From the NCBI RefSeq assembly GCF_004010195.1, contig NC_057718.1, positions 39,600,635-39,664,634 of the forward strand: a stretch of DNA of 64,000 nt. The letters are read 5' to 3'. The stretch comes from Chiloscyllium plagiosum (lineage: Eukaryota). The translations under genes and the position numbers were made by a program. Below, in pieces: positions 7,958 through 64,000 of the stretch. The first letter of the stretch is position 1. Each line of letters starts with the position of its first letter. The notes under the pieces are model-generated. The model did no database searches, was not told the origin of the DNA, and saw only the letters and a program-made list of their open reading frames with translations.

Positions 7958-8392
7958 TGCTTAATTACTTATCCTTGCTCTGGGTAATCACCTGGCTTTC
8001 CCACCAATAAGGCAGGTACTACATTGCAAATCCTGAAAGATGTCCGTGGACTAGAGTTTGAGACTTACTGCTTTCCCCAATTACTGGATCAGTTACTGTG
8101 ACATAAGTTAGAGTATTCATTCTGAAGATTCATTCCCACCATCAGTTAATAATAATTCTGAAATTGAAAAACAAAAATTCTCATGTAACAAGTATCAAAG
8201 TATAGGTAGAAGCCCATTCATGGAGAAATACCATAATTAATCATCTTAATTCATGAAAATAAAAACAATATTTCACGTGTTAATAATAATTTAATTGCAT
8301 AACACAACCGACGAGTCAAAAGCAGATAGTGTTTAATTTCAACTAACAATTGATCTTTAAACAATCATTAGGTTTGTCGAGCAACATAACTG

Positions 8393-8622
8393 ATGGCATC
8401 CGAAGATAGCTGTGGAGTCAAATCAGGTGTATTCATTCGTCAAGATAGTTCCAGCACGTCACTCTCTCTAGGGTTTGACCCATATCAGGCTGGATTAAAT
8501 CTTCAATTTGTTGAACCATTAGAAGATAGGTACAAATGTGTCACTTGTTCATTTGTACTTTGCAATCCATACCAGACTGGATGTGGGCATCGGTTTTGTG
8601 AAAATTGCATTGCAGAATTAAC
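8393..8622 (+). CDS. TRAF5: TRAF5 coding exon 1 (start codon, RING: CVTC...CGHRFCENC)
   Basis: Acceptor AG at 8370-8371 implies an upstream non-coding exon; ATG at 8393; donor GTAAGT at 8623 (phase 2). Confidence 0.95.
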
Positions 8623-29600: not shown

Positions 29601-32600
29601 CTCTGATCTCAGACCAGCCATTGCTTTGCTCAAATACAGGGAAATTCCTTTGAAATGAATCAATTTTTCAGACCCTGCTTGTCCCTGCTGTAAAATTTGA
29701 TCATTTCACAGATTATCCAAAAGGATTGAGGGATTGCAAGCAATTTTATTGAAGAACTACAGCTTAAATACAGTACATAATTAGACCAGATACAGCCCGA
29801 TGTGTAACCTCTAACCCATGAGAATGGTTTACTAGCCCAGAATGAGAGGGACTGTGGAAAGGCAGCAGGATTTGATCTTGCTGCCTGCTGTAATATTTTC
29901 TTCGTTTTTGTGACCAGGGTGAGATATTAAACTGAAAGGTAGCATGGATCCAACTCAAGGCTGAGCTGAGCAAGGTGTTGAACTGAAGCCAACATGGACA
30001 AATCTCGGGGAACTCTCCTCCACTTCTTTCTCAAAAAGCTCTTGTGAGGAAAATATCATCTATTAACTTTATTGTGTGTCAGCTCAAGCAGCTGCTGAGG
30101 AATTGCCCTCAACTAACTTACAATTCTGTAAGCACTATTATTTTTACATTACATTTCCAGAAAACCTTTTTGTAGTCATTCCCAGCGCTCACGATCATCT
30201 GGTGATCTCAGACACCAGTCTCCTCAAAGTATTCTTCTTTTCTCTGTGTGGAACATTTTCTGCAATTTGTTTCACCTGGAAGAGATAAGCCAGAAGCTAT
30301 AACATGAGAGGGCACCACTCCGCATCTAGCAAGGCTGACCAGCAGAATCTGCTGCTCTTAGTGTCTTCCATAGAGAGGATTTACACATTAAAAATTAACT
30401 TGTTTGACCATGTTATGAAATGTATCTTCTGTGCCCATCAGGTTCTGGCGTGAAACCTGAACAAGGAGCTTTTGGCTCAGAAATAGAACACTACTCACTG
30501 CACCTCAAAACCTTCCCTGAAAGTGTTCCCAGATCCTCATTTCAGTACTGCCATGATATAAACTGCTTTCCTTATGCTTCCAGAACTTAGGGCCAATATG
30601 AATGCAAATAAATTAATAACCCACCTAATACTACTCGGTAAAGTGAAGAGTTCAACCTCATATAGTCTCTGATTAACTGTAAGTAGCAGTATTAACTACC
30701 AGTTGTTAAATATGGGTGCACATTTGGGTGCATGGCGCTCATCTTATAGGCACCACCCTTGGTGGTCTAAAATGGCATTCACAGCATGTGCACACATCTG
30801 GAGTAAGTCAAGCCAGACACCATATTGACAAATGTGTTAGTGTTTGTGCACAAAGCTCCCATCAGAAACATGCAGGGTGGGCCACTCACGTGATCAGTCA
30901 GCTTGTAACAGTGATTTAACATCGGCATTGCCATTTTGAAGTTCAGTAATCCAGCTATTGTCTTTTCTTAGTCTTGTACAGGTATGCAAGCAGCAGCAGG
31001 AAGAAAACTCTGCCTAACTAGCAGTGCTGTTTTAAGGCATCGTCAACTACTTACAGCATAGTTGCTGGTTTATTTCTATTGGCTGTTGTGATTGTGCAAG
31101 TGTCGGATACTTTCTAGCATTCTTTAAAGCTGCTAAAGTCTACAGGGACCTCTGTGGCAGGTGGTGTCTGTAAAGTTTTGTCAGTTTTGCTGGCTGTAAA
31201 AATTCTAAACCACAAACCACTTACTCCCACACATGGGTGAACTAGTAGTCATCTGCCTTGGAGAATAAACTGAGGGCTTGCAGATCAGAACAGGCTGCAA
31301 TAAGAAGCAGGGGGAGGGAGAGAAGGACTCCCTGCACAACATTCAGGATGTTCAGGAAGCAACTTGTCTGAATCTCAGCAAGAAACCGTACACTACCTGA
31401 AATATTAACAAGTGAGTGAGGACATTCTCACTGAAATCTAGCAATGGCTGTCTCCACAACTGCAGCCTCAGAGCAGAGTAAGGGTTGCATTGTCATGGTG
31501 AAGGGGACAGTATTTTTGCACTGGGGTCCTTGCAAATATCAGGTACCTTCATTCTGTGGCAGACCACTATTCATTTGTCATCACAACCAACCTACTAGCT
31601 ATTAGACAAGGAAGGCTATTCTATAACAACATTGCTCATGACTTAAGTGTGCAATCCATGCACTTTTGCAGTGTAGTAATCATAAAAGCTTTGCTATTGT
31701 ACAAAATGAGATGAAGCAGACCATTAGCCTGCTGAAACAGCGAGTGGGACTTGGTGCAACTGATGTGCATTGAACTGACCATTTGAAGAACCAGTGGCAA
31801 ACCTGCATTGCTCCTGAGCAGGAAGCCCAACTGAATTTAAATGCCTTTCAGAAATTTAGCTGGCCAATGTCCAGCCATCCCAGGCATCAGGACATTGAAA
31901 GCAGAAATCACACCCATTGTGAGCTGCTGGTCAATCTGAGAAGCATCCTGGGGGACGTCTACAGTACTCTCCTGATGAAGAGCTAATGCCCAAAATGTCA
32001 ATTCTCCTGCACCTCAGATGCTGCCTGACCTGCTGTGCTTTTCCAGCACCATACTCTCGACTCTGATCTCCAGCATTTGCAGTCCTCACTTTCTCCAGAG
32101 TGTGTGCCAGATTCCATGATAGTCTTTTGTGTGTCAGTGTCACACCATCATGAGGGCACAGCCCTTCCCGCTAACTAAACAGAGAGTAGCTGAGGACCAA
32201 AGTGGAGAAAGATGGAGGAGGTAAACTGGACAACCTCAGTTTACCCAGGTTCTGTATGAACAACCCACCTGACTGTGAACCCTGTAACCCTAACTTTAGT
32301 CCCTCATTCTCTGAGCTCACCTTCCCTCTGTCAATCCCACTGCAGTGTTCACAATGTGAAACAATAAATCCAACAAGAAATATGCATTCCAAACCATGTC
32401 AAATGGCATACAAACACCAATCAGTCATCCTCATGCATTCCATTGTCATCAGGGTCCATTTTCCTGCCCTCTAGCTCCTATTCAATACAAATCCAATGGC
32501 CACAGCATGGTGGCTGGGAGCTGCTGAATTTCAATGGGAGAGACTGCAGAGAGAAGATGACCAACTCTGAGCCCACAAAGCCTGGTTTCAGACAGCGCTG

Positions 32601-35600
32601 TTTTAGCATAGTCAGGTTGGCTGACTGACAGGCTAAGGCTCTGGCAGAACATTGAATACTGCCATCATGAGAGAAGACAGCAAGTCTTTACAGAGACATT
32701 GCTAGTCCCTAGTATAACCTCAGCCATTCTGGCATTGTGTTGAAGGACAAATTGCTGGACTGTAGCTGAAATATTCTTGACACAACAATCCACAGTCACA
32801 CTGACAGCTGTCCAAATGTGTATGGCAGCAAGCAAATCTTTAGCTTTAGTTAACACAGATATTGGGGGGCTGCTTCAGCTGCAGTAAAAGGTGATGTATC
32901 AGTTACTGCACATTCTATCATAGTTGGATCCAGAGGTGTGCTAGTGAGTTTGCCACCAGTTTCATGCTGAAAGAATTAGGTTACAAGCTCTGTGCAGACC
33001 CTTTTGCAAATTTGGTGCTGGATCCCTCTGTGCTTTTTTTTGTATCCAGAGCAGGCTTTCTGGCAGGCCTGACAAAGCACCAAGCATTATATTGTGCACT
33101 TGATTTAACCTCCTCTGTAGCCCGCCCCATCAAAATGTTCACCTGAGGTCTCTGTGGTAGACTTCAGGAGAGCCCACCCACTGGTGAGCTGACAGCTATG
33201 CAACACTTACCCTGGCCAATACAGGCCACTTGTGCTCACTGCATCGATGCTATCCTCCACTTTACAGGCAGTGTCAGTCTCTGCCCTAGTGGTAACAAAT
33301 TGTAAATGAAGTTCTGATGTTTTTTCATCATTAGTATTTTCATCTTCCACCTATCATTCTGGTGGCTGTGGTTCCTGAGTATTTGGAAAGAAATTAAGTA
33401 GAGGGGTAAAGTTGTGGTGAGAGGCAATATTGGAGAAAGTAAGAGATGCATACTCGCACAGTCTGCACCTTATAAATCAGAAGCGAGTGTAGGATGGGAG
33501 AGGACACTGCCTGGGGAGGTAGGATGGGAGAAAGAGGATTAGGTATGGTTATACTGTCATCTTCTATAGTTTCACCTCCACCCACTCCAGTGATGGTGAT
33601 CTTCTGCCTGGCAGTAAGGACAGGCCTCTTCCCCACACTGTAAGTTTGCTTTGTTTCCAGTTGTGCAACGTCTTTTCCTGAGAGAGAGGGAGAGGATTGT
33701 CAGTGGGTGTGGTGTAGTCTGCCTGTGTGATGTGGCTGTCAGTAGAATAGCTGTGTAGATGTGGGTGTGAAGCTTACAGCAGTGCTCAGTGTTTGATGGT
33801 GAGGGAAACTGTGATTGTTAAGTAAAAGTTCTGTTGTCACAGACTGTTAGGAGATGAGCAGCATCTGAGATTGTGGTCTACTTGATTGGACGTGACGTTT
33901 GAAGACAAATTTGCTGGTTTTCACTACTAGTGAGGTCATTGAACTTTATGCAGCTCTGTACAGGTACTTGGGCTTGATTCCTGGCATTGTCCAGCAGAGC
34001 TGACTGGCCCCACTGTCTTCCAAACATTTGGAGGGCCTCCTGGCTTCCCATACATACATACTTTCCTGCTTTGCATCTTCGCCACTAAGATCTCGTGTGC
34101 AGTATCTGAGAATCTTGAAGCAGACTCTTTCCTATGTTATGCCATTATTCAGTGCATTTTTAATGTCAGAGTGCCTTATACAAAACAATTCAGCACTTGT
34201 GCTTCAGTATAAGGCACGTCCTCATCAAGAGAAACAGACCAATTTTACTTACTGTAGGCTAACTTCAACCTAGCCCCTCTCAATTTTGATTCCCTCTGTT
34301 GAGGTGTAAAGCAACTCAATGGTGAATTTAGTTTTAGCTGCACACTACAATCTTAGTACCAAACAGCAAACACCAGACTCTGTATGTTGGCAATCTCACA
34401 TTGACAGCATGAAAGACAATGGTGCTTTGTGAGTCCCATGTCATGGGTTTTCCAATTTAGCGTGTATGCTATTATGAAAGTGTTTTATAAAGAAAGAACT
34501 TGCAATTGTAAAACATCATTCAAGTTCTTGGAAAGCTCCAAAGACCTTAAAGCTGATAAATTACTTTTGGAGTGTAGTTATTGTTATTATGAGGAGAGGC
34601 TGTGTAGATTGGGATTATATTCATTGGAATTCAGAAAGATGAGGAGGGATCTTATAGAAACATATAAAGTTATGAATGGAATCAATAAAATAGAAATAGA
34701 TAAGATGTTTCCACTGGTAGGTGAAACTAGAACAAGAGGTCATGGCCTCAAGATTAGAGGAAGCAGGTTTACAATTGAACTGAGAAGGAACTTCTTCACC
34801 CAGAGGGTTGTTAATCTATGGAATTCCTTGCCCAGGCAAGTAATTGTCGCTACTTTCAGTAATGTTTTTGAAAAATAAAGGAATTAAGGGATATGGTGAG
34901 AGTGTGGGTAAGTGGAGCTGAGTTCACAAAAAGATTAGCCATGATCCTACTGAGTGGCGGAGCAGGCTCGAAGGGCTGGCCGGCCTACTCCTGCTCCTAG
35001 TTCTTATAAAGGCAAATTGAACTCAGTAATCTAAAGTATTTAGCCTTAATATTGTTACTTTGGTAGTGTAATTTTTATTCATCTAATGTAATCCATTAGT
35101 AACATTGTTTGGAAACATTACTACATCTGCAGAGGTATTCCAGAGACGTGGGTAGCTGAGGGGATTCACACAGATCACAATGACCTTTCATTTTGAGCAA
35201 TTTACAGAAACATTTTACACAATGCTCTTATTTGCTGAGTTGAAGAAAATACTGTAAAATTTGTTACAGACAAACTGCACATACAATTAAAATTGAAATA
35301 TAGGTGACCACACGAGGAGTATGAATGTTTACAAGGGGTTGAAAAGAATTGTTGCTCAGTTTTACTGTTGGCCTACTTGCAGTAATTCCTAATGTTGTTA
35401 AGTTTTATTCAAACTTCTCTTTAATTTCTTAATGCTAGATTTTAGATTTAAAAAACACTTTATGTGAAAGGAATCAAGCCATCATTCAATTAGAAGAACA
35501 GATCAGCAAACTTGACATGGAAATGAGGCAATTAAATGGGCACATTTCCAAAAATGATGATGAAGTTGCAAGAACACAGGTAAGAAATTTCTCTGAGTGG

Positions 35601-38600
35601 GATTTTCATTGATCACCATCTTTGTAAATAGTTCTGTGCACCCTAAACTGGTAGCTAAATACCTCTGCTTTGGCCATTTGTGACTGGTAAGGCCTCAGCT
35701 TAGGCAATAGAGATGTGGAGCAGATTTCCTGCTCTTTTGATCAGAGGAGATACGTGGAACCACTAACTTAGAGTCATAGAGATGTACAGCATGGAACCAA
35801 CCTGTCCATGCCGACCAGATATCCCAACCCAATCTAGTCCCACCTGCCAGCACCTGGCCCATATCCCTCCAAACCCTTCCTATTCATATACCCATCCAAA
35901 TGCCTCTTAAATGTTGCAATTGTACCAACCTCCACCACATCCTCTGGCAGCTCATTCCATACATGTACCACCCTCTGCGTGAAAAGGTTGCCCCTTAGGT
36001 CTCTTTTATATCTTTCCCCTGTCACCCTAAACCTATGCCCTCTAGTTCTGGACTCCCCGACCCCAGGGAAAAGACTTTGTCTATTTATCCTATCCATGCC
36101 CCTCATAATTTTGTAAACCTCTACAAGGTCAACCCTCAGCCTCCGACGCTCCAGGGAAAACAGCCCCAGCCTGTTCAGCATCTCCCTATAGCTCAAATCC
36201 TCCAACCCTGGCAACTCCCAGTATTCCATGAGATCTAACCTTGCTAATCAATCTCCCACAGGGAACCTTGTCGAATGCCTTACTGAGGTCCATATAGATC
36301 ACATTTACCGCTCTGCCCTCAGCAATCCTCTTTGTTACTTCTTCAAAAAACTCAATCAAGTTTGTGAGACATGATTTCCCACGCACAAAGCAATGTTGAC
36401 TACCCCTAATCAGTCCTTGCCTTTCCAAATACATGTACTTCCTGTCCCTCAGGATGCCCTCCAACAACTTGCCCACCACCGACATCAGGCTCACCGGTCT
36501 ATAGTTCCCTGGCTTGTCCTTACCACCCTTCTTAAACGGTGGCACCATGTTAGCCAGCCTTCTGGCACCTCACCTGTGACTATCGATGATACAAGTATCT
36601 CAGCAAGAGGCCCAGCAATCACTTCTCTGCTTTCCCATAGAGTTCTAGGGTACACCTGATCAGGTCCTGGGGATTTATCCACCTTTATGCATTTTAAGAC
36701 ATCCAGCACTTCCTCCTCTGTAATATGGACATTTTGCAATGTGTCCCATCTATTTCCCTACATTCTATATCTTCCATATCCTTTTGCACAGTAAAAACTG
36801 ATGCAAAATACTCGTTTAGTATCTCCCCCAATTTCTGCGGCTCCACACAAAGGCCGCCTTGCTGATTGATCTTTGAGGGGCCCTATTGTCTCCCTAGTAA
36901 CCCTTTTGTCCTTAATGTATTTGTAAAAACCCTTTGGATTCTCCTTAGTTCTATTTGCCAACGCTATCTCATGTCCCATTTTTGCTTTCCTGATTTCCCT
37001 CTTAAGTACACTCGTACTGCCTTTATACTCTTCTGAGGATTCACTCGATCTGTCTATATCTTACATATGCTTCCTTCTTTTTCTTAACCAAACCCTCAAT
37101 TTCTTTAGTCATTCAGCATTCCCTGTACCTATCAGCCTTTCCTTTCACCCTAACAGGAATATACTTTATCTGGATTCTCGTTATCTCATTCATGAAGGCT
37201 TCCCATTTTCCAGCCATCCCTCTACCTGCGAACATCTGCCCCCAATCAGCTTTTGACAATTCTTGCCTAATACCGTCAAAATTAGCCTTTCTCCAATTTA
37301 GAAGTTCAACTTTTGGATCTGGTCTACCCTTTTCCATCACTATTTTAAAACGAATAGAATTATGGTCGTTGGCCCTAAAGTGCTCAGTCACCGGCCCTGC
37401 CTTATTTCCCAAGAGTAGGTCAAGTTTTGCACCTTCTCTTGTAGGTACATCCACATACTGAATCAGAATATTTTCTTGTACACACTTAACAAATTCCTCT
37501 GCATCTAAACCCTTAACACTATGGCAGTCCCAGTCTAAGTTTGGAAAGTTAAAATCCCCTACCATAACCACCCTATTATTCTTACAGATAGCTGAGATCT
37601 CCTCACAAACTTGTGGAAAATAAACAAAATTCCAGAAGGATCCCAGGCTAAAACTGGCAGAATGTTGTTTTCCCCTACCCAATCTTAAAAATGCTTACTT
37701 CTATAATTCAAACCAAGCATTGAAAACAGTCAGTCATTTTAAAAAATCCTCTAATTATTTATTTGCCCTTTTTGTTGTACTTTAAAAGAATTGGCTCTCT
37801 GCAAAAGAGAAAAACATGCTATTGTTTTTGTTTTATTTTGTAATAGAGAAGTACAGTTCTTTCGAATTGAAACTGTTCAACTAGGGATGAAATGATAATC
37901 ATTCACAATGGCCTAGATTTTCCATGGCCTGACATTGGTTATTCCAGTGTAGATGAGGGTTACAAAGAATTGTCGGAGAAATTGAAGATTCTGCTAGACA
38001 ATCTCCATATGCCTGGAAAATCTTCATTTAGATCAGACAATTCAGAGTTTCAATGAAATTATGTAAATACTTCCTCAGGAAATATTAGACTATTAAATCC
38101 GTAGCCTAACTGGTGATAACTATTCAACTGACCCCAACCTTATCTCAAATGCCCTCAACTACACCTCCTAATAGACCTCTTACAAGACCATGGTCTGACC
38201 ACCACCCCTTTCCCACTTTGCCTCAGTCTCACTTCCCAGCTGCTCAACTCCTACTATCGCCGCTCCACACCCAACCACAACCCCCTCCACCTCCCCTGGC
38301 AGGACCCAATACCCCATTTTGCCTTCCACTGCAGATCTGCTCTCTTTTATCTCACTCTGAACCTAACCACACTTTCACTGCTCTGGACCCAGTGGGACTG
38401 ATCCCCAAATTGATCATCCATTCTGCACCCAACTCCCCTTTCATTCCTATTCCCTTGTTGTGGCACCTACCCTTTGTATGGTATTACTTGGATACTGTAA
38501 AGTTGTAATACTTCTCTGCCAATTTTCTACCCTTTTTTGATCTATTTTATTCTAATTGTTATGTCAACATACTGTTGCTTTAAAACAGAAAATGCTAGCT

Positions 38601-41132
38601 GGGCATACTGACAAAATAATAAAGATTGAGCAGCAATCACAACAACTTTGTAGAAGATTTGATGAAGAAGGAAGAAGTGAAATCTCAGCCCTGAAGGAAA
38701 TCATCAATGTGTTAAAGGAAAAAGTGGATTGTGCTGAAAATAGCATTGCATCACTAGGTCTGTGTTACTTCCAACGTTCTTTCTCGACAGCAATGGTACA
38801 TTTTGTATTTTAATTTATTGTGAATTTGGCAAAGTTTAATCAATTTTAAGCAGAGCTGAACTACTATATTCAGAATTCACTTCAATTGACATTGAGTGGA
38901 CAATTAAACCCACAATCCAAGGGGTAGACCGTAATGACACAGGAGCATGTTTCACACAAAACATTGGCTTTTTGGCTCTCACCAAAAAGCGGTTCAAGAG
39001 CATAAAATGTAGCAACAATAGGTGATTGAGGGTAGATGCTAATTCTAAGTCCAAGCAATTAAGTAGAATATGTTACAACAAAAACAAATTGCTGGAGAAA
39101 TTTAACAAGTCTGTTAGCATCCATGGAGAAAGTAACAGAGTTCATGTTGAGAGTCCAGTGACCTTTCTTCAGAACATAGAAACATCGTACAGCACAGAAA
39201 CAGGCCCATTGGGCCAACTCGACCATGCCAACCAAGTTTCCACAACTAAACTAGTCCCATTTGCCTGTGTTTGCCCCACATCTCTCTAAACCTTTCCTAT
39301 TCATGTATCTGTCCAAATGTCTTTTTAATGTTGTAATTGTACCTGCATCCCGTATTGCCTCTGGCAGTTCATTCCACATGCAAACTACCCTCTCTGTGAA
39401 AAAGTTACCCCTCAGGTCCCCTTTAAATCTTTCTCCTCTCACCCTAAAAATATGCCTCTCGGTAAAAGACCTTTTCTACTCACTTATCTATGTCCCTCAT
39501 GACTTAATAAACCTGTATAAGGTTACCTCTCAACCTCCTACAGTCTACTGAAAAAAGTCCCATATTAAATCGCGGAGCAAGCTTGAAGGAACATCATTGG
39601 ACTTGAACTGTTGACTCTGCTTTCTCTCCACAGATACTGACAATTCTGTTGAATTTCTCCAGCAATTTCTGTTTTTGTATCGGTTTCCAGCATTCGCAGT
39701 TCTTTTGTTTTATTTAAGTAGAATGTGGTTCCTCTTTACCTCAAAGATTACAGCACATGGATTGATTAATGATAAACATGAGAACTGAAAGTGAACTTGT
39801 GGTGTTTGAAATTTCACAGATCCAAACAAAACATGCATTGTCTGGCATTCCTGGGCTGTTGTGAAATTTTGATCCTGAAAAATTTAGTTTTTGAAAGGCC
39901 CAGAGTTCCCTGTGACTGCTTGGGTGTGTAGGAACAGCCCATTCTGCCATTGCATTAGTTGTGCCTAATCTGTATTCCTACTTTGGTTCCATATCTCTTG
40001 ATATTCTTATGTAACAAAATCTATCAATCGTTCTCAGTCTTGAAATTTTCAATTGTGCTAGCTTCCAGCCTTTTGGAGGAGATAGTTAAGATTCTTACGT
40101 GTGGGGAAAAGATATTTCCTGATTTTACTCCTGAATGCTCTATCTTTGAATTTAAGATTGAACTCTCTAGTTCTGGATCTCTCCATCTGAGAAAGTGGTT
40201 TATCTGTGTTTACACTTTCAGATTCCTTAATCATTTAAATACTGTGATTCAGGGTCTTTTGACCCTCCCGACACTCTCATTCTTTCACTCACGTAAATTC
40301 TATCAACGTACCTGCTTTCGCACTTTCTCAGTCCTGCAGGATTGCTAATATATCACCATTTTTGTAATGTATCACAGAAACTGAAGCAGCTTGTATCAGA
40401 ACCTATATTGTTTTGCTTTTGAAATTCAGAATATAATTTAATAGTTATTAATAATCAAAGTATATATAGTATTGCAGCTAACAATACTTTGAAAGTTGGC
40501 AACATTTTAAGGGCATGAGTTGGATTGTATTATGCTTTTTTTTCACTTTAGCCACTTTCGAGCCCTGCCTGAAGCAACATGAATCATTACTAAATGCTCA
40601 TAAGAAACTTCTGGAGAAGAATGATGAAAGATTTCGAGTTATTGAAGCTACTAGCTACAATGGTAAACTGATTTGGAAGATCAACAATTACAAAGCACGA
40701 AAGCAGGAAGCAGCAGAGGGACGTGCACCTTCTCTTTTCAGCCAGCCCTTTTACACCAGTCGCTGTGGATATAGGTTATGTGCTAGGGCATACTTGTACG
40801 GAGATGGCACAGGCAAAGGAACACACCTATCTTTGTTTTTTGTGGTTATGAAAGGTGATTATGACTCTCTCTTGGCATGGCCATTCAAGCAAAAGGTCAC
40901 CCTTTTACTGCTCGACCAGGGTCCTAAGAAAAACCATATTGTAGAGTTCTTTAAGGCTGATGCCAGCAGCACTAGCTTTCAAAGGCCAGTTTCTGAAATG
41001 AATATCGCATCCGGATGTCCAAAGTTTGTATCTCACACTGTGCTTGAAAGTGGGAAAACTGCAACGTTTATCAAAGATGATACATTATTTATCAAAGTTA
41101 TTGTAGATTTATCTGATCTTGAAGATCTATAA
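8393..41132 (+). CDS. TRAF5: TNF receptor-associated factor 5, complete spliced CDS: join(8393-8622,13063-13120,16493-16594,21340-21501,22408-22485,29109-29183,29264-29356,35439-35579,38589-38757,40552-41132), 562 aa
   Basis: All introns are GT-AG with consistent phases; exons sum to 1689 nt (563 codons including TAA). N-terminal GVFIRQDS, FYTSRCGYRLCARAYL and C-terminal DLSDLEDL match TRAF5 rather than TRAF3 or TRAF2. Confidence 0.95.
8750..12505 (+). mobile_element. Near-full-length degenerate CR1-clade LINE (HER1-like) in TRAF5 coding intron 1
   Basis: ORF1 esterase-like HIGTNDIG; ORF2 endonuclease and RT fragments (YRPVSL, QHGF..GKSC, MDFSKAF, PQGSVL) broken by stops and frameshifts; typical 3' tail. 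Confidence 0.92.
13063..13120 (+). CDS. TRAF5: TRAF5 coding exon 2 (ETKPIAVCPIDHERIITNW; end of the C3HC3D RING)
   Basis: Polypyrimidine tract and AG at 13061-62; GTAAG at 13121; 58 nt restores the frame; CPID motif. Confidence 0.92.
13538..13850 (+). mobile_element. HE1-type V-SINE
   Basis: Same head, core and tail. Confidence 0.85.
13951..14088 (+). mobile_element. Short Penelope-like terminal-repeat insertion with a 15-bp TSD
   Basis: CTTCATTAAATATAA at 13936-50 and 14089-103; the 5' gctgaaaatg is the inverse of internal cattttcagc. Confidence 0.75.
13960..13997 (+). ncRNA. Minimal type-I hammerhead ribozyme motif
   Basis: GATTC-CTGAAGA-A-GGGC-TCAT-GCCC-GAA-ACGT-C-GATTC: intact core, stem II, palindromic ACGU stem III, GUC triplet, stem I with 4 of 5 pairs. 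Confidence 0.7.
15775..16250 (-). mobile_element. Penelope-like element 3' end (ORF C-terminus plus terminal repeat with hammerhead motif at 15845-15880)
   Basis: Minus strand PSGVNIKFKYS-like ORF end, then GTT-CTGAAGA-A-GGGTC-ACAG-GACCT-GAAACATT-GAC. Confidence 0.6.
16493..16594 (+). CDS. TRAF5: TRAF5 coding exon 3 (LFRDNCCKREVWNLMVYCKNSPAC...)
   Basis: AG at 16491-92; GTGAGT at 16595; DNCCKRE motif. Confidence 0.95.
17860..18700 (-). mobile_element. Highly decayed CR1 RT fragment
   Basis: Minus-strand ORF 18147-18332 (YTLKGKIL...VMLNLYEVLVR) resembles the CR1 ORF2 C-terminal half. Confidence 0.55.
18880..19860 (-). mobile_element. Fragment of another LINE family, interrupted by a Penelope-like element at about 19308-19718; a related + strand piece lies at about 1820-2080
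   Basis: The flanks rejoin across the insertion (ccaattaagtgg|cctgctttgtcttgg); similarity to 1820-2080. Confidence 0.55.
19308..19718 (-). mobile_element. Penelope-like element 3' end
   Basis: Minus-strand GINVDFNSF ORF end, C-rich spacer, hammerhead motif at 19401-36 with GAAA mutated to AAAA. The same terminus recurs at 63942-64000. Confidence 0.65.
20197..20545 (+). mobile_element. HE1-type V-SINE
   Basis: Same head and core; (TTCTA)n tail. Confidence 0.88.
21340..21501 (+). CDS. TRAF5: TRAF5 coding exon 4 (zinc fingers, DHLKKC...CQYCK)
   Basis: AG at 21338-39; GT at 21502; 54 open codons with TRAF zinc-finger Cys/His spacing. Confidence 0.95.
21715..21857 (+). mobile_element. Possible Deu-domain SINE remnant
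   Basis: Decayed resemblance to the Deu core (gtcctttca...ccaaggcc...ctcag...agattccatggcac), recognised from memory. Confidence 0.4.
21857..22197 (-). mobile_element. HE1-type V-SINE
   Basis: Reverse complement of the SINE consensus. Confidence 0.85.
22408..22485 (+). CDS. TRAF5: TRAF5 coding exon 5 (EHEAVACPNFPIQCTYNCGKSLLRSE)
   Basis: AG at 22406-07; GTGAG at 22486; 78 nt. Confidence 0.93.
23965..24905 (+). mobile_element. CR1 3' fragment inserted in a Harbinger remnant
   Basis: SKFVDDTKIGG-type RT motif through to the 3' tail. Confidence 0.85.
27030..27253 (+). mobile_element. 5'-truncated HE1-type SINE with a (TCTAA)5 tail
   Basis: V-domain 3' part and tail. Confidence 0.8.
28590..28895 (-). 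mobile_element. HE1-type V-SINE
   Basis: Reverse complement of the SINE consensus. Confidence 0.87.
29109..29183 (+). CDS. TRAF5: TRAF5 coding exon 6 (LDSHLMECPEAEVECSYKKYGCHVK)
   Basis: AG at 29107-08; GTAAGT at 29184; CPEAE motif. Confidence 0.95.
29264..29356 (+). CDS. TRAF5: TRAF5 coding exon 7 (EKRWMIREHEHSYLNEHL...LEEQ)
   Basis: CAG acceptor ending 29263; GT at 29357; follows an 80-nt intron. Confidence 0.93.
31400..34300. mobile_element. Decayed Harbinger-like element (transposase remnant on +, possible Myb/SANT-like remnant on -)
   Basis: LQPQSRVRVALS (about 31460) and GYSITTLLMT (about 31614) on +; CIKFNDL-like on - (about 33935). Confidence 0.45.
31968..32097 (+). mobile_element. 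Penelope-like terminal repeat with a degenerate hammerhead motif
   Basis: CTGATGAAGAGCTAATGCCCAAAATGTC...ctccagcatttgcagtcctcactttctc. Confidence 0.6.
34585..35010 (+). mobile_element. CR1 3' fragment (second subfamily, ctcctgctcctagttcttat tail)
   Basis: YEERLCRLGLYSLE...TRTRGHGLKI...FFTQRVVNLWNSLP. Confidence 0.85.
35439..35579 (+). CDS. TRAF5: TRAF5 coding exon 8 (coiled coil, ILDLKNTL...VARTQ)
   Basis: AG at 35437-38; GTAAG at 35580; 47 codons with heptad-like pattern. Confidence 0.88.
35768..37612 (-). mobile_element. 5'-truncated, internally deleted CR1 LINE of the same family
   Basis: Minus-strand ORFs with VGDFNFP, PGNYRPVSL and DLSKAFDKVP; sequence close to the 8750-12505 copy. 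Confidence 0.92.
38589..38757 (+). CDS. TRAF5: TRAF5 coding exon 9 (coiled coil, KMLAGHTDK...IASL)
   Basis: CAG acceptor ending 38588; GT at 38758; 169 nt, phase 1, matching the next exon. Confidence 0.88.
39070..39713. mobile_element. Penelope-like inverted cassette with an 11-bp TSD and CR1 inside
   Basis: TTAAGTAGAAT at 39059-69 and 39714-24; inverted arms aaattgctggagaaattt / aatttctccagcaattt. Confidence 0.7.
39175..39565 (-). mobile_element. CR1 3' fragment nested in a Penelope-like hairpin cassette
   Basis: GERFKGDLRGNFFTERVVCMWNELP on the minus strand. Confidence 0.8.
40552..41132 (+). CDS. TRAF5: TRAF5 last coding exon (TRAF-C/MATH domain, stop codon)
   Basis: AG at 40550-51; YNGKLIWKI, WPFKQKVTL, MNIASGCP and IKDDTLFIK motifs; TAA at 41130-32. 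Confidence 0.97.
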
Positions 41133-46592: not shown

Positions 46593-47584
46593 TTTGTTTC
46601 AGATTACCAGCAGCAGTAAGGCTCACTGCAGATAAAGGCAAAATTCCGTGGATGCTAGACATTTGAAACAAACAGAGGGGATGAACTAAACCTCCCTGGT
46701 CTCTGCTTCTTTTTCCTCTCCAGATTACAGCTTTAACAGCAGACAGTCTGCATTCTATGCTTCCATTTATAAAGTGACTGATGGTCAGTGGAAACATTTC
46801 CACTGAATTCTTCTCGGTCAGCTGCAGACTGATGTGGAGATTGCTGTTCCCTTTCAGTCATGCTGTCAGTACTGCAGCCGTGTTATCCTGGAGGGAGAGA
46901 GTGTGTGCAGGAGGAGAATATGTCTATGCCTGCTGCAGGGGGTTTGTCCCCTCCAACCGCGTCCCCCTGTGGCTGAGACAGAAGCGACAGCACAGACCCC
47001 CCCCCCCCTCCCGCTGCTGGAACTCCCACTCTGGGAGCAGTCCTGCAGTTAAAGAGCCCCCACCTCCCCCTCCAACAACAATCCAGTTGGAAGCTGTGAA
47101 TTCCCAGCTGCTGAACCATCAAGGTCACATTTGAAGTGAAATGAGTTCGAACTGACTGACTTGCTCCAAGTGCAGATGGAAATACAGTGAGCCGCCTCTA
47201 CCACCAGTAAGTGCTTCATAACCCGCCCAAACGCTGCAGCCATGTGGAAACTCAAACGTAAGTTGTTCTTCATTTCATTGCGGTCTTTACGAGTTGTTGA
47301 TTGAGAATCCCCCCCCGAAATAGTTTGACAGAGCAGACAAGGAGAAATCTTTTTCCCACCTGGAAAAGGATCGAGAGCTAAAAGGCATGGGTTTAACACG
47401 GTTTGGGAAGAATGCAACTGAAGAAAGAGACTGGTGTGGGTTTGGAATGCACTGTCTGGGTAGGGTGAAGAGAGGGTAAAATCAGGATGGATGTTCCCAA
47501 TGACTGGGGAGACCATTACAGAGGGTCACTGTCTAAGGAGATCATTTCGGAGCTGAGATGAGGAGAAACATCTTCACCCAGTGG

Positions 47585-49265: not shown

Positions 49266-49579
49266 GTTGTTACTGAGATTTCTTTATGTCTTTGTTTTGC
49301 TGAAGAGCTGACTATTTTGTTGACTTCATATTCTTATGTCACATTTCTGCACATGTCACATCTTGTCCCATGTTGTTTCTAACAGCCCCACTGGAAATGC
49401 CGCTCAGTCTCAAGTACAAGCACATTTTGGAGGTTTGTATTCTGGAATAAAACAACATTTAAACTGTCATAACATTGCAAACATGGAAGGAGTGTGCATC
49501 AGCAATGTATATGTATTTGGCCACTAGCAATAAACAGTAGCATAATTAGTTGAGCTTTTTTTTTGCTTTTGTTTTCCTG

Positions 49580-54035: not shown

Positions 54036-54433
54036 CACATGACTTCTATGCAAGAAAGATTTCTTGTAATGATGGGTTTTAAACACATTGCAGTGTTATT
54101 ATCAAAACAAAATACAGGTAAAAGCTCATCACAAACAATCATCCACTTTTATTATAACCACATGCTGTTAAATACGTGCTGTCTAACATTCAGTATGTGT
54201 CATATTGCATTCCTCATCTATTTGTTTTTGATTGCGATCTCACAGTGTAGGTTATCTCAGTAGTTTGGATCTAATGATTTTACAAAGCAATGATGTACGA
54301 ATGAGCAGTACAGTTATGTACAATTGTGCACAGACTTAATTTCCACTTCATGTTTCTTATTTCAAATTAAAGGAATTGTGATTTAAATCCATCAAAGTGA
54401 TGCTGACACGATTGTTTATAATTTTAGCAATTA

Positions 54434-54626
54434 ATGCCAAGTGATCCTACAATTTCACTTAATCTTAAAAAATTGTCGGCTGAAGAAGAATTTCCAAACT
54501 TGGCCAGAAATCAGACTTATATGGCAAAGGTTCTTACAATTCAAATGTACAAGAGACTGAGGGCCAGAGCAACTCAAAGTGGCTTCACACTGGATGATAT
54601 CATCCAACCTGGTGTTGATAAATCTG
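54434..54626 (+). CDS. CK-like coding exon 1 ([23 protein letters not shown]...QPGVDKS)
   Basis: Acceptor AG at 54426-27, six nt before the ATG; donor GTAAGT at 54627; 193 coding nt. Confidence 0.92.
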
Positions 54627-57600: not shown

Positions 57601-60600
57601 TGTAGTTCCTCCTCTGTCAGGGGGCCTGCTAGCGCCATCTTGTCTCCCTGAGAGGAAGGGGCAATTGAAGTGAAGTCGATGTCCCCCATCCTACTTTACC
57701 TTGTAGCTGTTGAGGTCCGTGCACATATCTGACAGAGACTGTGTACTGGACCTGTCTTTTCAGGGCAGTGGCTAAAGTCTCCATGGAGACAGTCAGGTGC
57801 ATGCAAGCTACAGCCAGCATGGCACTGATAATGTTTATGGACTCCTCCATTCTTTAATTCAGTTCACCAACTGCCTCAGACTAACTTGCCTACTGTTCCT
57901 ATGCCTATTTGAGCATTTTGACGGCCATTAATAGCTGACACCATGGAATCCTCTTCTGCCTGGGGCTGTACAGGTACCTGGTCTCTAGCAGTCCCAGGAG
58001 TGACAGAGATCTGGGGAGTTCTTTCCTTGATCAGATGCAGAGACACGTCAGTGATATGCTCCTTGGGTTGTGCTCCTGAGTTTAATCTATCTTCAAGAGA
58101 AAATGAGGTCTGCAGATGCTGGAGATCAGAGATGGAAATGTGTTGCTGGAGAAGCGCAGCAGGTCAGGCAGCATCTATCTTCAAACCCACCAAGGCAAAT
58201 GTTTCTGAGACCCAGGTGTGCGAGTGAAAACCTTGCCATTGCACCCTGTGATAGTTCGGAATTTCCTCAGAGGTGGAAGTCAGGCTGAGGGCTGCCTGTG
58301 CTGGGTCTTCCAGTGTGGAGGTTTGCTGGGTGCTGCTACTGCCTGTGTAAGAGACGGATTTAGTTGTGCAAGAGTTTGCACAGATTCAGAATGAGTTAGT
58401 GTGGTGTGCCAGCACAGCACTGTGAAGCTCATGGGTTGGTTTTCCATGGAATTCACCCGGACCCCATCTGAGCAACCCTCCGTTGAATTAAAAGGAATGA
58501 GGAAACTGATGTTCACCAGCAACACCACCCAAGGCCGGCTTGGCTGAGGTGTAAGCTGATCTCTCCTGCAATGAGCCAAACAGAGTTCATGAGTCTCAGT
58601 GAGATGCATGTACAATTTCAGAGTTAGTTACTTGTGAGTGTGAGGTGGCAGAGAAGGATCGTGGCACTTAACCTTCTAGAGCACAAAAGATAATTTATTT
58701 TCTTCCTATGCTGTTGTGCTTTCTGTCTAACCTGGGACACAGCACTGACTTGGGCCATTAGCTATGTCCACGCTGACTGTGTCTGGTAACATAGCTTCCT
58801 TTGGTGATCTGAAGTGTAAAGGATGGTCCTCCTCTCCACCAGCATTTCCAGGTCCCTTGCCCAAAGTGGAAAGCTAACACACTTTTCTGGACCATTTCCT
58901 CAGAGATAATGATACAGGGCCACAGTCTGTGGCCTAGTTCCTGACTTGCAGAATTTGAAGAACCAACAGGGCTTTAAATATGGCATCTTTGCTGTCTGCA
59001 CTGGAAGGTGCTGGCAGTGGGAGCACTTAAGTCTCTCTTGCCATTTGATTCGACAGGAAGGCTGTCGGATAGCCCAGTGACAACCAATGAGGTGACCAGC
59101 AGAGCATTGCATGCAAAGATTCACTCAGCAATGGAGCAAATGAGCCAAGTACCACAAGTCTCACTCAATAAAGCTTGATAACTGAAAATGAGACAATTCA
59201 ACCCAATGTTACTCATTTAAAACATTGCTATGGAACCACGGATATAATTGTCACTACTTTATTTGTTTGCTTGCCCAAATAGAATATTCTTCCACTAGAA
59301 CTGTGGGTTGTGTGGCTGGAGATGCAGAATCATATACTGTGTTCATGGAGTTCTTTGATCCTCTTATTGAACTTTATCATCGTGATTATCAACTAAACAG
59401 AATGCACAGGAGCAACTTGAATCCAGAAAACCTAAAGGTAGCTTTATAAAGTTTGTTTTGTAATTTCTACATGTTACATTTGGAAAGAATAATATATCGA
59501 ACAAGACCATTTCGGCCTGTTCCAATAGGCCTGTTCCAGAAACAAGTTTGCAAAGTTCCTTATTAATGTTTCCAACTTACTTTTCGATTTTGGGTGTAGA
59601 CACACGTAAACACTTCAAACTCAGAAAAGCAATAAAGCAAAGGTTACCAATTCATATCAACATGTGTCTATATAATCCAAATTTAGCAAATGTTGTCTAT
59701 AGATCATGTGCTTCCTGGCATAGCCGACCTCACTATACCACCACACACCGTCCACTCTCACCACACCCTGCCAGACGTGAGTGGCAAAAAGACCAATGTC
59801 TCCTGATGTACTTAGGCTATATTTTTCCTTATGGTCTTTAATCCATTCAAAATCAGACAGTTATATGTTTTTGTGAAAAAAAAGATAAGCACTGTTTTAA
59901 CTACATTCACTGGAAGTCTCCTCCATGTATTTTGAGACTGTGTTAAAATAAAATTTTTACTGATTTCAAGCCTTACAAAATCAGGAAATAAACTTGGAAA
60001 AGACAGGCTACTTCATTATCCCACTGTACATTGGTTGCAAAGTTTTCATTTTCAAATCCCCCCATCACTATGCAACCTTCCTCCAGGCACACTTTCCCCT
60101 CCTCCTTTCTCTTCCAGCTTTGATAAACAGCACAATTCCCTCTTCCACCCATTCCACTACTGAAGGGAAACCCTTAAACCATCAGGCTCCAACAGTTCAA
60201 AATTTCTTTCATAAACCCTCCATCCTGCCTCCTCATCTGCAAAAACCTTAAAAGTACCAGTGTCTCCATCAACTCCCCTTGTTCATTTCCTATTTCTGAG
60301 CCCCGACTGTGAAGTTGCCTGTGACACTTTGCTACATTAAATGTGCAGATTTACTGTAGCAGACAAAAGTCTTCATCTTTGTTCCAGTAAAAAAATGCAA
60401 TTTAAGTTTCTAGTGACATTTTCAAAAACTATTCATTAACTGTTCTAACAGTCCTTTTTCACTTAATAAGACTTTATTTATTACCTAATCCTTTCTCTAT
60501 TAATCTATTTTCAAACTTTAACATCCATCTAATGTTTTTAGAGAATGTTTTATCATTTATGTTATAAGTATTGTATAGACAATGTTATTTTTAGTTTTTA

Positions 60601-62063
60601 ATAATGATTTCTAATGGAAATATAGAAGTTCTATTTTGCTCATGGTGTTGTGGCAATGTATATATAATTTGACATGCACCCACCAGCGCTGATTTACTTC
60701 CAATACTACTTGCTGTTCTATATTTCATGAAGTCAACAGTTTCTGCTTACATTTAAAAGGTTAGAATATTAAATCATTATTTTCCAGAAAGTCCAATTTC
60801 TAACTTTGCTTCTCGCTGGTCCTGTCATCAGTGCACAGGGAAATTCCTCCTGATGGAATTGCATTTCTTCTCTAAATGCCTTCACACCCAAATTTGTATC
60901 ACATACCTGGCATAACTGCAAGTCAGAATGGGGTCTAGTCAAAATAAAACTTGTACTGTTACAATCCAAGCTAACGTTATTACTAGACAAGAGAGATTCC
61001 ATACTGCAACCTAGCATGATAGATGATGTTTCGTTTTCTTTTGATTTGAACAGTTTTCACTTGCTGAACTATTAGCACATGATGCTGTAGATTTTAAAAA
61101 CAAAACAGAAGTTTATTAACATAAGAAATAAAGATAAAATAGGATAAACAAACTGTCTACTATTCAAATATTTTTAAATAGACAGTAAAAGTGCAATGTA
61201 ATTAATCCCAAAACATTCATTTATAAATTGAAAAGAGAAACAACAGTTTTTGTAAAGCATCCAAAACACAGTCCTGGTACAGTCTCCGAAAACACACCTT
61301 GTATAGTCCCCCAAAACATAACTCATACCAGCTTTGAGTAACCTCCTCTGCATTTTATCCCAATTTTTTAGCTCTGGGAGTATCACTATCTTTGCTTTCA
61401 CTGAATCTTCCCATTCTCGGGAGCACTAGTCTATACAAGCATCTACAAGCATAGGACTTCACAGGAAGTCAAAGTGAAAATAGAAAAAATCTCTCTCTAA
61501 ATTTAAAAAGCCCTTTCTGATATTCTAAACTGGAGTTTGTTTATCTTGTGCAGTTGTAAAACCCTACCAATGTGTATTAAAAAATTAAAGCTTATAAATT
61601 ATATAGTCTCAAAAATTCTTTTGAAATAAATCACAACAGGTAAGAAAAAAACTAAAGTCAGTTATGATCTTCAGACACACAGAAAGCCCACATTATTAAT
61701 AAAAAAAAACAAAACTTATAAAAAATTATAGTAAAGTCATACAGTCTACACTACATTAACTAACCATACAATTGGGCTGGCAGTGCACAATGACAGGAGC
61801 TCCACAAACCTTGTACTGAGTCTATGGATTAAAATCCTTATGTTTATACTACTTGTATCCATTAATTAATAACAATTGAATGGCTGGTTAATAAAAGGCC
61901 TGTAATTATTTATTACCCTTCTCCCTGCAGGGTGGAGCTGATTTAGATGAACTCTATGTGTTGATCTGTCAAGTGAGCACAGGACGTAATGTGGATGATT
62001 TTTGTTTCCCACCTCACTGCAGCCGTGGAGAGAGACGTGCACTGGAAAAACTTGCCAAAGAAG
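54434..62063 (+). CDS. Divergent cytosolic creatine-kinase-family (ATP:guanido phosphotransferase-like) gene, 3'-partial: join(54434-54626,59283-59437,61931-62063); continues beyond the window
   Basis: 160 aa colinear without gaps to CKB/CKM residues 1-160 ([41 protein letters not shown]). Exon sizes 193/155/133 and phases 1/0/1 match the cytosolic CK gene structure. Confidence 0.92.
55242..55429 (+). mobile_element. Penelope-like hairpin with a hammerhead motif (55323-55360)
   Basis: AGTT-CTGAGGA-A-GGGT-CACCCA-ACCT-GAAATGTT-AACT; flanks CTATTTACTT / CTATCTACTT. Confidence 0.65.
56235..56547 (-). mobile_element. HE1-type V-SINE
   Basis: Reverse complement of the SINE consensus, with full head ggcggcacggtggcacagtggttagc. 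Confidence 0.88.
56767..56988 (+). mobile_element. tRNA-derived SINE of another family
   Basis: A-box-like tagctcagttagc head; actttaccttta tail. Confidence 0.5.
59283..59437 (+). CDS. CK-like coding exon 2 ([18 protein letters not shown]...NLNPENLK)
   Basis: AG at 59281-82; GT at 59438; 155 nt. Confidence 0.93.
61931..62063 (+). CDS. CK-like coding exon 3 ([20 protein letters not shown]...[18 protein letters not shown])
   Basis: Strong polypyrimidine tract and CAG ending 61930; GT at 62064; 133 nt. Not in the ORF track. Confidence 0.93.
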
Positions 62064-62465
62064 GTGATTTATTTTGTTTGTTCATTATTGAAGAAATTAG
62101 AAATAACAGAACATTTACCTAAATCTCCAACATTATCCATATTTGAATCCTGCCAATGATACCAGAGGTCACATGATATCAACTTTACAAATGACTTCTG
62201 ATATGCCTGTGACAAAAGCAACCTTCTTTGTTTGTCTCAATGTATGCAGTCTTTGACAAGGTTGACCACAGCATTCTCCTTTGAGACCTCTCCCTGTTGT
62301 CCAGTGCATGAGACCATTCCCCTTCCGCCTCCACCCTCATCTCCCTAACATCCCCTGACATTTCACTTGTCTCAGATTATCTGTTGTTTAAACCCTCATT
62401 TGTGGCTTTTTAAAAGAAAATCTCTAGTGTGGACTATTCCAACGCATTCCTCTTGGTCTGCCACA

Positions 62466-62607
62466 TTTAGATTACTTACAGTGTGGAAACAGGCCCTTCG
62501 GCCCAACAAGTCCACACCGACCCGCCGAAGCGTAACCCACCCATACCCCTACATTTACCCCTTTACCTAACACTACGGGCAATTTAGCATGGCCAATTCA
62601 CCTGACT
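62466..62607 (-). mobile_element. HE1-type SINE 3' fragment
   Basis: Tail-side portion only. Confidence 0.75.
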
Positions 62608-62794
62608 TCTCATTCTCATTCAAGATCATCCAGCACTCTAATGCTTAACTCAATTAAGCTTCATTCACTTGTCCTACATTGACTCCTGGTAAAGCAGAAT
62701 TTTAAAATTCTCTTGCTCATTTTTAAATCCTTCTCTGATTTTTGCTCTCCTTAATGCTATCATCTCCTACTATCCCCACAACCCTCCAAGGTAT

Positions 62795-63255
62795 AGAGTC
62801 ATTGCGTCTTACAGCACAGGAACAGACCCTTTGGTCTAACCAATCCATGCCAACCATAATCCCAAACTAAACTAGTGTCACCTGCCTGACCCTGGCCTAT
62901 ATCCCTCCAAACATTTCTTGTTCATGTAACTGTACCCACATCCACCACTTCCTCTGGAAGTTCATTCCACACACAAACCACTGTCTGTGTAAAATAAATT
63001 GCCCATCATATCTTTGTAAAATCTTTCTCCTCTGACTTTAAAGATATGCTCTCTAATTTTGAAATCCCCCACAGGGAAAAAAAAACACCTGCCATTCACC
63101 TTATGACTTTATAAACCTAAACCGCCTATAGTCCAGTGAAAAAAAGTCCAAACCTATCCAGCCTCTCCTTATAACCCACACTTCCATTCTTGGCAACATC
63201 CTGGTAAATCTCTTCTGAACCCTCTCCAGCTTGATAATATCCTTCCTCTAACAGG
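62795..63255 (-). mobile_element. CR1 3' fragment
   Basis: Reverse-complement similarity to the other CR1 tails. Confidence 0.7.
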
Positions 63256-63941
63256 GCTGATATCTGTGCTCACATTTTGAGCATTACTGAGTTTAATCAT
63301 TCCACCATGGTTGACTGTGCTCTGGGCTCTGGAATTCCTTTTGTAAACATCTGATCTCTACTCATTGTCCTTTCCCTTTGACCAAGCCTTTGATCACCTG
63401 ACTGCATATATTCTTATGTCACGTCATTGTTTATGCCTTGATGCTCCTTTGCTGTGTTTTATTAAATTAAAGGTGCTATATAAATGCCATAAATCCCATT
63501 TCTCTGGCTCAATAATACGTTTGTTGCATATATATTGACATTAATGTCAACCCACCTTTTCAGCCATGGCATTACTCACATTACCAGTCAGTCTCAATTT
63601 TGCTCCCATCAAAGTTTTGTTTTATTTACTGATACCTTATGACTGGTCGCAAGGGATCAAGCAGGTAATATGAGCTCTGTTGTGAATATGAAACAACACA
63701 TCGACTTTTTGCATTGGATGCTTACAAAATTTCAAAACAACACACCCACTCTTACTTTTATATTTGGTGCATAAGTCAACAATGGTTTTTAGAGGGATTT
63801 TTTCAATGTTTTAAATGTTGATTCAGACACCAATGTCTACGGTATAATCTGGTGTTTCGTTTCAGCTTTAGCATTCGCTAAACTATTGAGTGAATTGAGT
63901 TTTATCACCATCTAGTGGTAATCTAGTGATACAACATTAGG

Positions 63942-64000
63942 TAAAAACAATGACTGCAGATGCTGGAAACCAGATTCTGGATTAGTGGTGCTGGAAGAGC
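63942..64000 (-). mobile_element. Penelope-like terminus truncated by the window edge
   Basis: Nearly identical to 19309-19367. Confidence 0.65.

Follow-up and report, generated by a model that had tools for sequence, protein, structure and literature searches.

Cytosolic creatine kinase (CK) is taught as an enzyme of two active chains, B and M. A 64,000-nucleotide stretch of the bamboo shark (Chiloscyllium plagiosum) genome, hereafter the window (C9:39600635-39664634), contains the first part of a further CK-like gene in which arginines of the nucleotide site are replaced, and the question is what such a gene encodes and why it is kept. We propose that it is a third cytosolic CK gene copy, intact and conserved, encoding an apparently undescribed pseudo-creatine kinase. 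Its product is predicted to keep the CK fold and has very probably lost useful catalysis; as most of the ATP-binding and catalytic residues are missing, it is likely to act as a non-enzymatic partner or anchor.

By tblastn and splice context, the gene was resolved into nine intact coding exons of 16, 47, 199, 155, 133, 172, 124, 190 and 191 nt, five of them inside the window on the forward strand and four past its end. Every junction is ag/gt, the 408-residue frame has no stop, and the coding region spans 26.5 kb. The initial annotation had correctly described a gene with canonical splice sites, but it counted three exons in the window and placed the start at the CK-equivalent Met (54434), thereby missing two small upstream exons: exon 1 (47242..47257), with the ATG and a gt donor, and exon 2 (49386..49432, ag/gt). 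Together with the first two codons of exon 3, these put 23 residues before that Met, exon 1 opening this clade-specific N-terminal tag and exon 2 supplying most of the remainder. Exon 3 (54428..54626) matches the Pfam domain PF02807 and, in the CKB numbering used throughout, carries T59P (54608-10). Exon 4 (59283..59437) encodes an altered 60-70 lid loop (H66Y, I69T) and R96Y (59375-77), and exon 5 (61931..62063) encodes S128I, R130Q, R132S and a conserved motif at 145-152. The two codons on which the gene had first been singled out, CAA for Q130 (61970-72) and AGC for S132 (61976-78), read as reported; this exon is free of stops and flanked by ag and gt, and its translation can be laid over human CKB residues 117-160 with no gap. 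Intron 5 then runs out of the window (62064..64000, forward strand). Beyond it lie exon 6 (C9:39668478-39668649), with H191G, exon 7 (C9:39669691-39669814), with E231K next to a retained E232 and R236, exon 8 (C9:39671590-39671779), in which C283 and R292 are kept while N286D, H296L and R320K appear, and exon 9 (C9:39674154-39674344), with a shortened 323-332 loop and the stop codon.

Residue for residue, the spliced product equals P0420 (RefSeq XP_043551696.1, bamboo shark), labelled 'creatine kinase M-type-like'; the gene is already annotated in RefSeq, but under an automatic name only. The protein carries both the N-terminal PF02807 and the catalytic PF00217 domain and is 55-56% identical to CKB and CKM (EC 2.7.3.2; PDB 3B6R, 1VRP, 1QH4). 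From exon 3 onwards its introns interrupt codons 65, 116/117, 161, 218, 259/260 and 323, the same as in CKB (on C10) and CKM (on C41) of this genome. The prediction that the fold is kept rests on the AlphaFold model of P0003, a 98.5%-identical orthologue: its best Foldseek match is CKB (E 2e-41, TM 0.79/0.85), at a mean pLDDT of 68.8 that is weak over the N-terminal 130 residues. As a minor feature of the locus, a common shark SINE-like repeat, with similar copies present, lies at 56381-56512 of the window on the reverse strand; in the RefSeq isoform P0004 of the orthologue, such a repeat forms an extra in-frame exon, probably through exonisation or as a model artefact.

In active CKs, the phosphates of the nucleotide are held by R130, R132, R236, R292 and R320 with R96 as a helper, loops 60-70 and 323-332 close as lids, and the nucleotide-side mechanism appears conserved across phosphagen kinases (PMC12387690; here and below, papers are cited from the portions that were accessible). 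A preprint (10.1101/2024.06.18.598884) further supports roles for the equivalent of E231 and for a His-Asp latch. Against this background, the shark protein bears T59P, H66Y, I69T, R96Y, S128I, R130Q, R132S, H191G, E231K, N286D, G294S, H296L, R320K, G321P and D326N, together with a two-residue deletion in the 323-332 loop, and retains R135, E232, D233, H234, R236, C283, R292 and R341. The five phosphate-binding arginines, among which the initial annotation had rightly placed R130 and R132, thus read Q, S, R, R and K, i.e. two of five are left. In the NEEDH motif E232 is present and E231 is lysine, C283 is present as well, and the lid features, namely the H66-D326 latch and the I69/V325 pocket, are absent, being hit by H66Y, I69T, D326N and the deletion. 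Overall, there are 214 positions at which 97% or more of the 76 ordinary CKs agree, and the protein differs from them at 66. The degenerate active site announced from two codons of exon 5 therefore extends to R96, R130, R132, H191 (which we take to be an active-site residue), E231, N286, H296 and R320.

Single changes at such positions are costly in human enzymes. Indeed, R130H and R132C leave CKM with less than 5% of ATP formation and N286I is likewise crippled (PMC8626780), and the kcat/Km left in CKB amounts to 2.1% for R132H, 10% for C283S, 8% for H296R and 18% for R96P (PMC10557616). These are other substitutions in other proteins, and what makes the case for loss of activity in the shark protein strong is the number of changes stacked in it; with E232, R236, C283 and R292 in place, the shark form may nonetheless have residual activity.

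Homologue searches and cluster look-ups retrieved the same gene from sharks, rays, a chimaera, bichirs, sturgeons, paddlefish, gars and many teleosts, including medaka and trout, the ray-finned members being often named zgc:172076. Of 41 proteins placed in a tree, 17 belong to this gene; they cluster together (100/100), their branching follows that of the species, and the cluster meets CKB and CKM at an open fork via a long stem (0.51). All five nucleotide-binding arginines are present in 76 of 76 ordinary CKs, while one to three are kept in the 19 cartilaginous orthologues (a few of them partial records) and none to two in the 85 ray-finned rows, which include a few same-species isoforms and are related rather than independent events. 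Left out of these counts were P0039, ordinary CKs outside 360-420 aa, multi-domain CKs and the alternative isoforms of most shark records. P0280, a metagenome protein, was also set aside: it scored closer to the clade profile, yet it is separately degenerate and has no N-terminal tag. By eye, it lacks R130, R132, both Glu of the NEED motif and R320, and could be another pseudo-phosphagen kinase.

Among cartilaginous fishes, R96 (one sequence being without the region), R132 and R320 (four gaps) are each found in 0/19, H191G and E231K in 19/19, and R130 is kept in 7/19. The expectation that orthologues would share both losses thus held for R132, which is absent from every cartilaginous orthologue, and failed for R130: of these two residues, only the loss at 132 is common to all 19 cartilaginous orthologues. 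Because seven of them keep R130, its loss is not ancestral, and R130Q probably arose later, inside the cartilaginous lineage. Ray-finned members have R130E in 82/85, R132 in 4/85, C283S in 85/85, R341 in 0/85 and a changed R320 in at least 84/85. Position 231 is lysine in sharks versus mostly hydrophobic in ray-finned fishes, and position 130 is Q or R versus E. Both fish groups have lost 33 of the 214 positions that ordinary CKs hold invariant, R96, R132, H191, E231, N286 and R320 being among them. Since these losses are common to cartilaginous and ray-finned orthologues, decay of the active site began before sharks and bony fishes split, about 450 million years ago, and went further in each line afterwards. 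No lobe-finned fish or tetrapod member occurred among the best 120 of 762 matches of a search that depends on shared words, which suggests that the gene was lost on the line to land vertebrates.

These comparisons also bear on a rival explanation, a decaying pseudogene or a sequencing artefact, in favour of which stand the long branches and the divergent active site. Nevertheless, the nine exons are intact with canonical splice sites and no stop, orthologues exist in 19 cartilaginous species and as 85 ray-finned sequences, and 81 columns are invariant among 30 aligned clade members. The replaced residues are neither a private mutation nor a sequencing error, as the RefSeq protein is identical and S or C occupies position 132 in 19/19 cartilaginous orthologues. 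The frame is open in both fish lineages, which rules this explanation out for practical purposes; we regard it as barely credible. Judged from the alignments, the clade does evolve faster than CKB (70% identity for the window protein versus 88% for CKB, carpet shark against chimaera), but far from neutrally.

Could the protein instead be a slow phosphagen kinase, or one with an altered substrate, at least in cartilaginous fishes? The shark form has E232, R236, C283 and R292, its K320 is a mild change, and R130 survives in 7/19; moreover, the human single mutants retain 1-18% of efficiency rather than none (PMC8626780, PMC10557616), and many members are labelled 'creatine kinase' in databases. 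These names are automatic, however, and a single protein here combines several damaging substitutions. It is the nucleotide side that is hit, where the mechanism is apparently conserved across phosphagen kinases (PMC12387690), and in ray-finned fishes the charge is reversed at 130 and often at 320. A working kinase hence seems quite unlikely to us.

A further view is that of a metabolite sensor, whose half-kept pocket would bind phosphocreatine, a nucleotide or phosphate and change shape without turnover. Indeed, ray-finned members conserve a basic residue at 292 (85/85) and at 236 (78/85), an acidic one at 232 (85/85) and H234 (85/85), and among these the basic 292 and acidic 232 indicate that a ligand may still be bound. 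New residues are conserved too, namely P59 in 97/104 and an acidic 286 in 95/104 members of the whole clade. This view is nonetheless unlikely, as the pocket differs by lineage (K231 against mostly hydrophobic residues, Q or R130 against E130), both lid loops are variable or shortened, and the retained residues may be structural.

The surroundings of the gene are informative about its origin. Some 21 kb past its end, and tail to tail with it, is a MARK KA1 domain (C9:39695817-39695948, reverse strand). CKB and CKM are each followed by one in the same arrangement, at distances of about 56 kb and about 26 kb, respectively; the MARK beside the shark gene matches MARK1 best, and that beside CKB carries the MARK3 motif. 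Directly upstream is a gene identified by best match as TRAF5 (8390..41129, forward strand; RING exon near 8.5 kb, MATH exon 40482-41129), and the blocks of CKB and CKM likewise contain TRAF MATH exons, at distances of 1.3 Mb and 0.35 Mb, respectively. Sec6-family exons occur on both the CKB and the CKM blocks. As three CK-MARK-TRAF blocks on three contigs are what two rounds of vertebrate duplication would leave, this gene, CKB and CKM are probably sisters by whole-genome duplication, born together when the genomes of early vertebrates doubled. In the shark genome, two family searches returned CK exons only on C9, C10, C40 and C41, and the 80 kb at the remaining MARK tail, on C45 (1,867 bases being N), held no CK exon that could represent a fourth copy. 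The TRAF MATH exon near CKM (C41:6708935-6709300, reverse strand) possibly belongs to a third TRAF3/TRAF5-type paralogue. Within the window, TRAF5 ends approximately 6 kb 5' of the start codon of the CK-like gene, on the same strand, and decayed LINE-type pieces (reverse transcriptase, endonuclease and a GDSL-esterase-like ORF) lie between its exons at 9002-11559 (forward) and 36189-37694 (reverse).

Part of the CK sequence has been kept. In both fish groups, 75 of the 214 invariant positions are unchanged, including E19, P21, D54, H145-R152, R209-D213, R215 and W218. E19, P21, D54 and the segments 145-152 and 209-213 hardly vary, from which we infer that the protein still dimerises; R152 and D210 are presumably further residues of the interface. 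CKs are obligate dimers whose interface is stabilised by D54 and R148, and a dimer can be asymmetric, with one subunit open while the other is closed (PMC12387690). A 'dimer-face' set of residues is 98-99.6% kept, but it was picked after the list of kept residues had been seen, and is too circular to be counted as a test. Besides, W211 points into the core (PMC8626780), and some of the conservation of these motifs may serve the fold instead of the dimer face.

The second distinctive element is the N-terminal tag, whose pattern is found in 16/19 cartilaginous and 63/85 ray-finned sequences, i.e. in 79/104 of the clade, and in 0/76 ordinary CKs. Six positions are near-fixed within the 79 tagged sequences, with Tyr in 78, Leu in 77, Glu in 79 and, further on, Pro in 74, 77 and 76. 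In an atlas search, the first 45 residues matched only clusters of CK N-domains, all below 0.9.

From these elements, we favour a scheme in which the protein would likely no longer transfer phosphate and would pair with active CKB or CKM as a non-catalytic subunit, its new basic tag placing or damping the hybrid dimer, so that the chain would be an anchor or a brake for cytosolic CK. We assign this scheme a probability of roughly 45%. It is consistent with the remark that heterodimers of wild-type and mutant CK can be dominant negative (PMC10557616). The catalytic-site residues still present in the shark (E232, D233, H234, R236, C283 and R292) speak against it, as do R130 in 7/19 cartilaginous orthologues and the charged residues at 232, 236 and 292 that most members retain. 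The observations that suit a hybrid dimer are also compatible with a homodimer or a scaffold acting alone.

Such a dead enzyme acting alone, as a homodimer or a monomer docking proteins via its tag or a remodelled cleft and without active CK, would leave the same pattern of lost residues, and the 55-56% identity to CKB and CKM and the faster evolution of the clade would suit it as well. Furthermore, the CK cleft does admit a protein partner: ASB9, which marks CKB for destruction, inserts its D32 into the pocket formed by R132, N286, R292 and R341 (PMC7280518). Yet the 145-152 and 209-213 motifs are unchanged from active CKs in both fish groups; a surface facing only itself could drift by paired changes, as one that has to fit CKB or CKM could not. 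For this reason we find a lone scaffold rather doubtful. Two of the four residues of the ASB9 pocket are changed in the shark and three in most ray-finned fishes, so that this chain would likely escape the grip of ASB9.

A fuller version of the favoured scheme is that the third cytosolic CK of jawed vertebrates turned early into a dedicated non-catalytic subunit forming hybrids with CKB or CKM, its tag anchoring or throttling the phosphocreatine shuttle in a specific cell type, and that it was kept in sharks and ray-finned fishes, including zebrafish zgc:172076, and apparently lost towards land vertebrates. We put this version forward tentatively. If true, creatine kinase would thereby gain its first regulatory pseudo-subunit.

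Comparison with known systems helps to place the protein. It resembles CKB and CKM in fold (TM about 0.8), intron positions, MARK and TRAF neighbours and the four residues E232, R236, C283 and R292, and differs from them in its eight lost active-site residues, changed lid loops, 23 extra N-terminal residues (mostly on two additional exons) and faster evolution. The zgc:172076 proteins and the 'creatine kinase M-type-like' RefSeq records of sharks and rays belong to the same clade and share the tag, though both bear automatic names only and the ray-finned members have decayed further (R130E, C283S, R320D/E, R341T). Pseudokinases and the pseudoenzyme subunits of active enzymes likewise have a conserved fold, lack catalytic residues selectively and persist long after gene duplication; pseudokinases have another fold, however (protein kinase versus phosphagen kinase), and here the binding of a partner is a deduction. 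The glycocyamine kinase alpha-beta heterodimer (PDB 3L2E) is, from its entry title, a single dimer made of two paralogous phosphagen kinase chains, at 39-40% identity to the shark protein. Its alpha and beta chains are both active enzymes.

A third conserved and probably dead chain would change the history of the CK family, correct the automatic 'creatine kinase' labels borne by many fish proteins and offer a natural probe of why CK is dimeric and how it is placed in the cell. With a zebrafish name and members in medaka and trout, the gene is open to direct knockout and assay. In the literature accessible to us, no description of this gene or of a vertebrate pseudo-CK was found; the gene may have been mentioned before, or its expression recorded, in subscription papers and supplements. 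The accessible part of PMC6443941 has nothing on CK paralogues. Searching the accessible zebrafish supplements for '172076' (PMC8961980, PMC8517238, PMC4199137, PMC11607696, PMC5690287, PMC8405809) gave no match to the gene, which may bear another name there, the lone hit lying inside a decimal number.

As regards expression, whole open frames were found on public contigs of 1.3-1.6 kb from a skate, a sturgeon-type fish and another fish (P0011, P0038 and P0364). Since the coding region covers 26.5 kb in the shark, such short contigs point to spliced transcripts in these relatives, their RNA nature being deduced from length. Exon 3 had 11 holders in sequencing runs among the 24 rows listed, with no RNA holder among the matches listed.

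Two other groups of CK genes came to light. In eel-group fishes, P0037, P0041 and P0044 are CKs of 383 residues whose active site is complete; the two that were read have an unusual N-terminus. In the tree, P0037 lies nearer to the divergent clade than any other ordinary CK, possibly through long-branch attraction. In the shark itself, two mitochondrial-CK-like genes stand in tandem on C40 (16133386-16146479 and 16186326-16207921). The first of them is divergent, with a four-residue gap in the 60-70 loop and a Glu at the equivalent of V325, a residue that shifts preference from creatine towards glycocyamine. Two exon regions of these copies are 96.6-99.4% identical, indicating a recent duplication, conversion or an assembly artefact.
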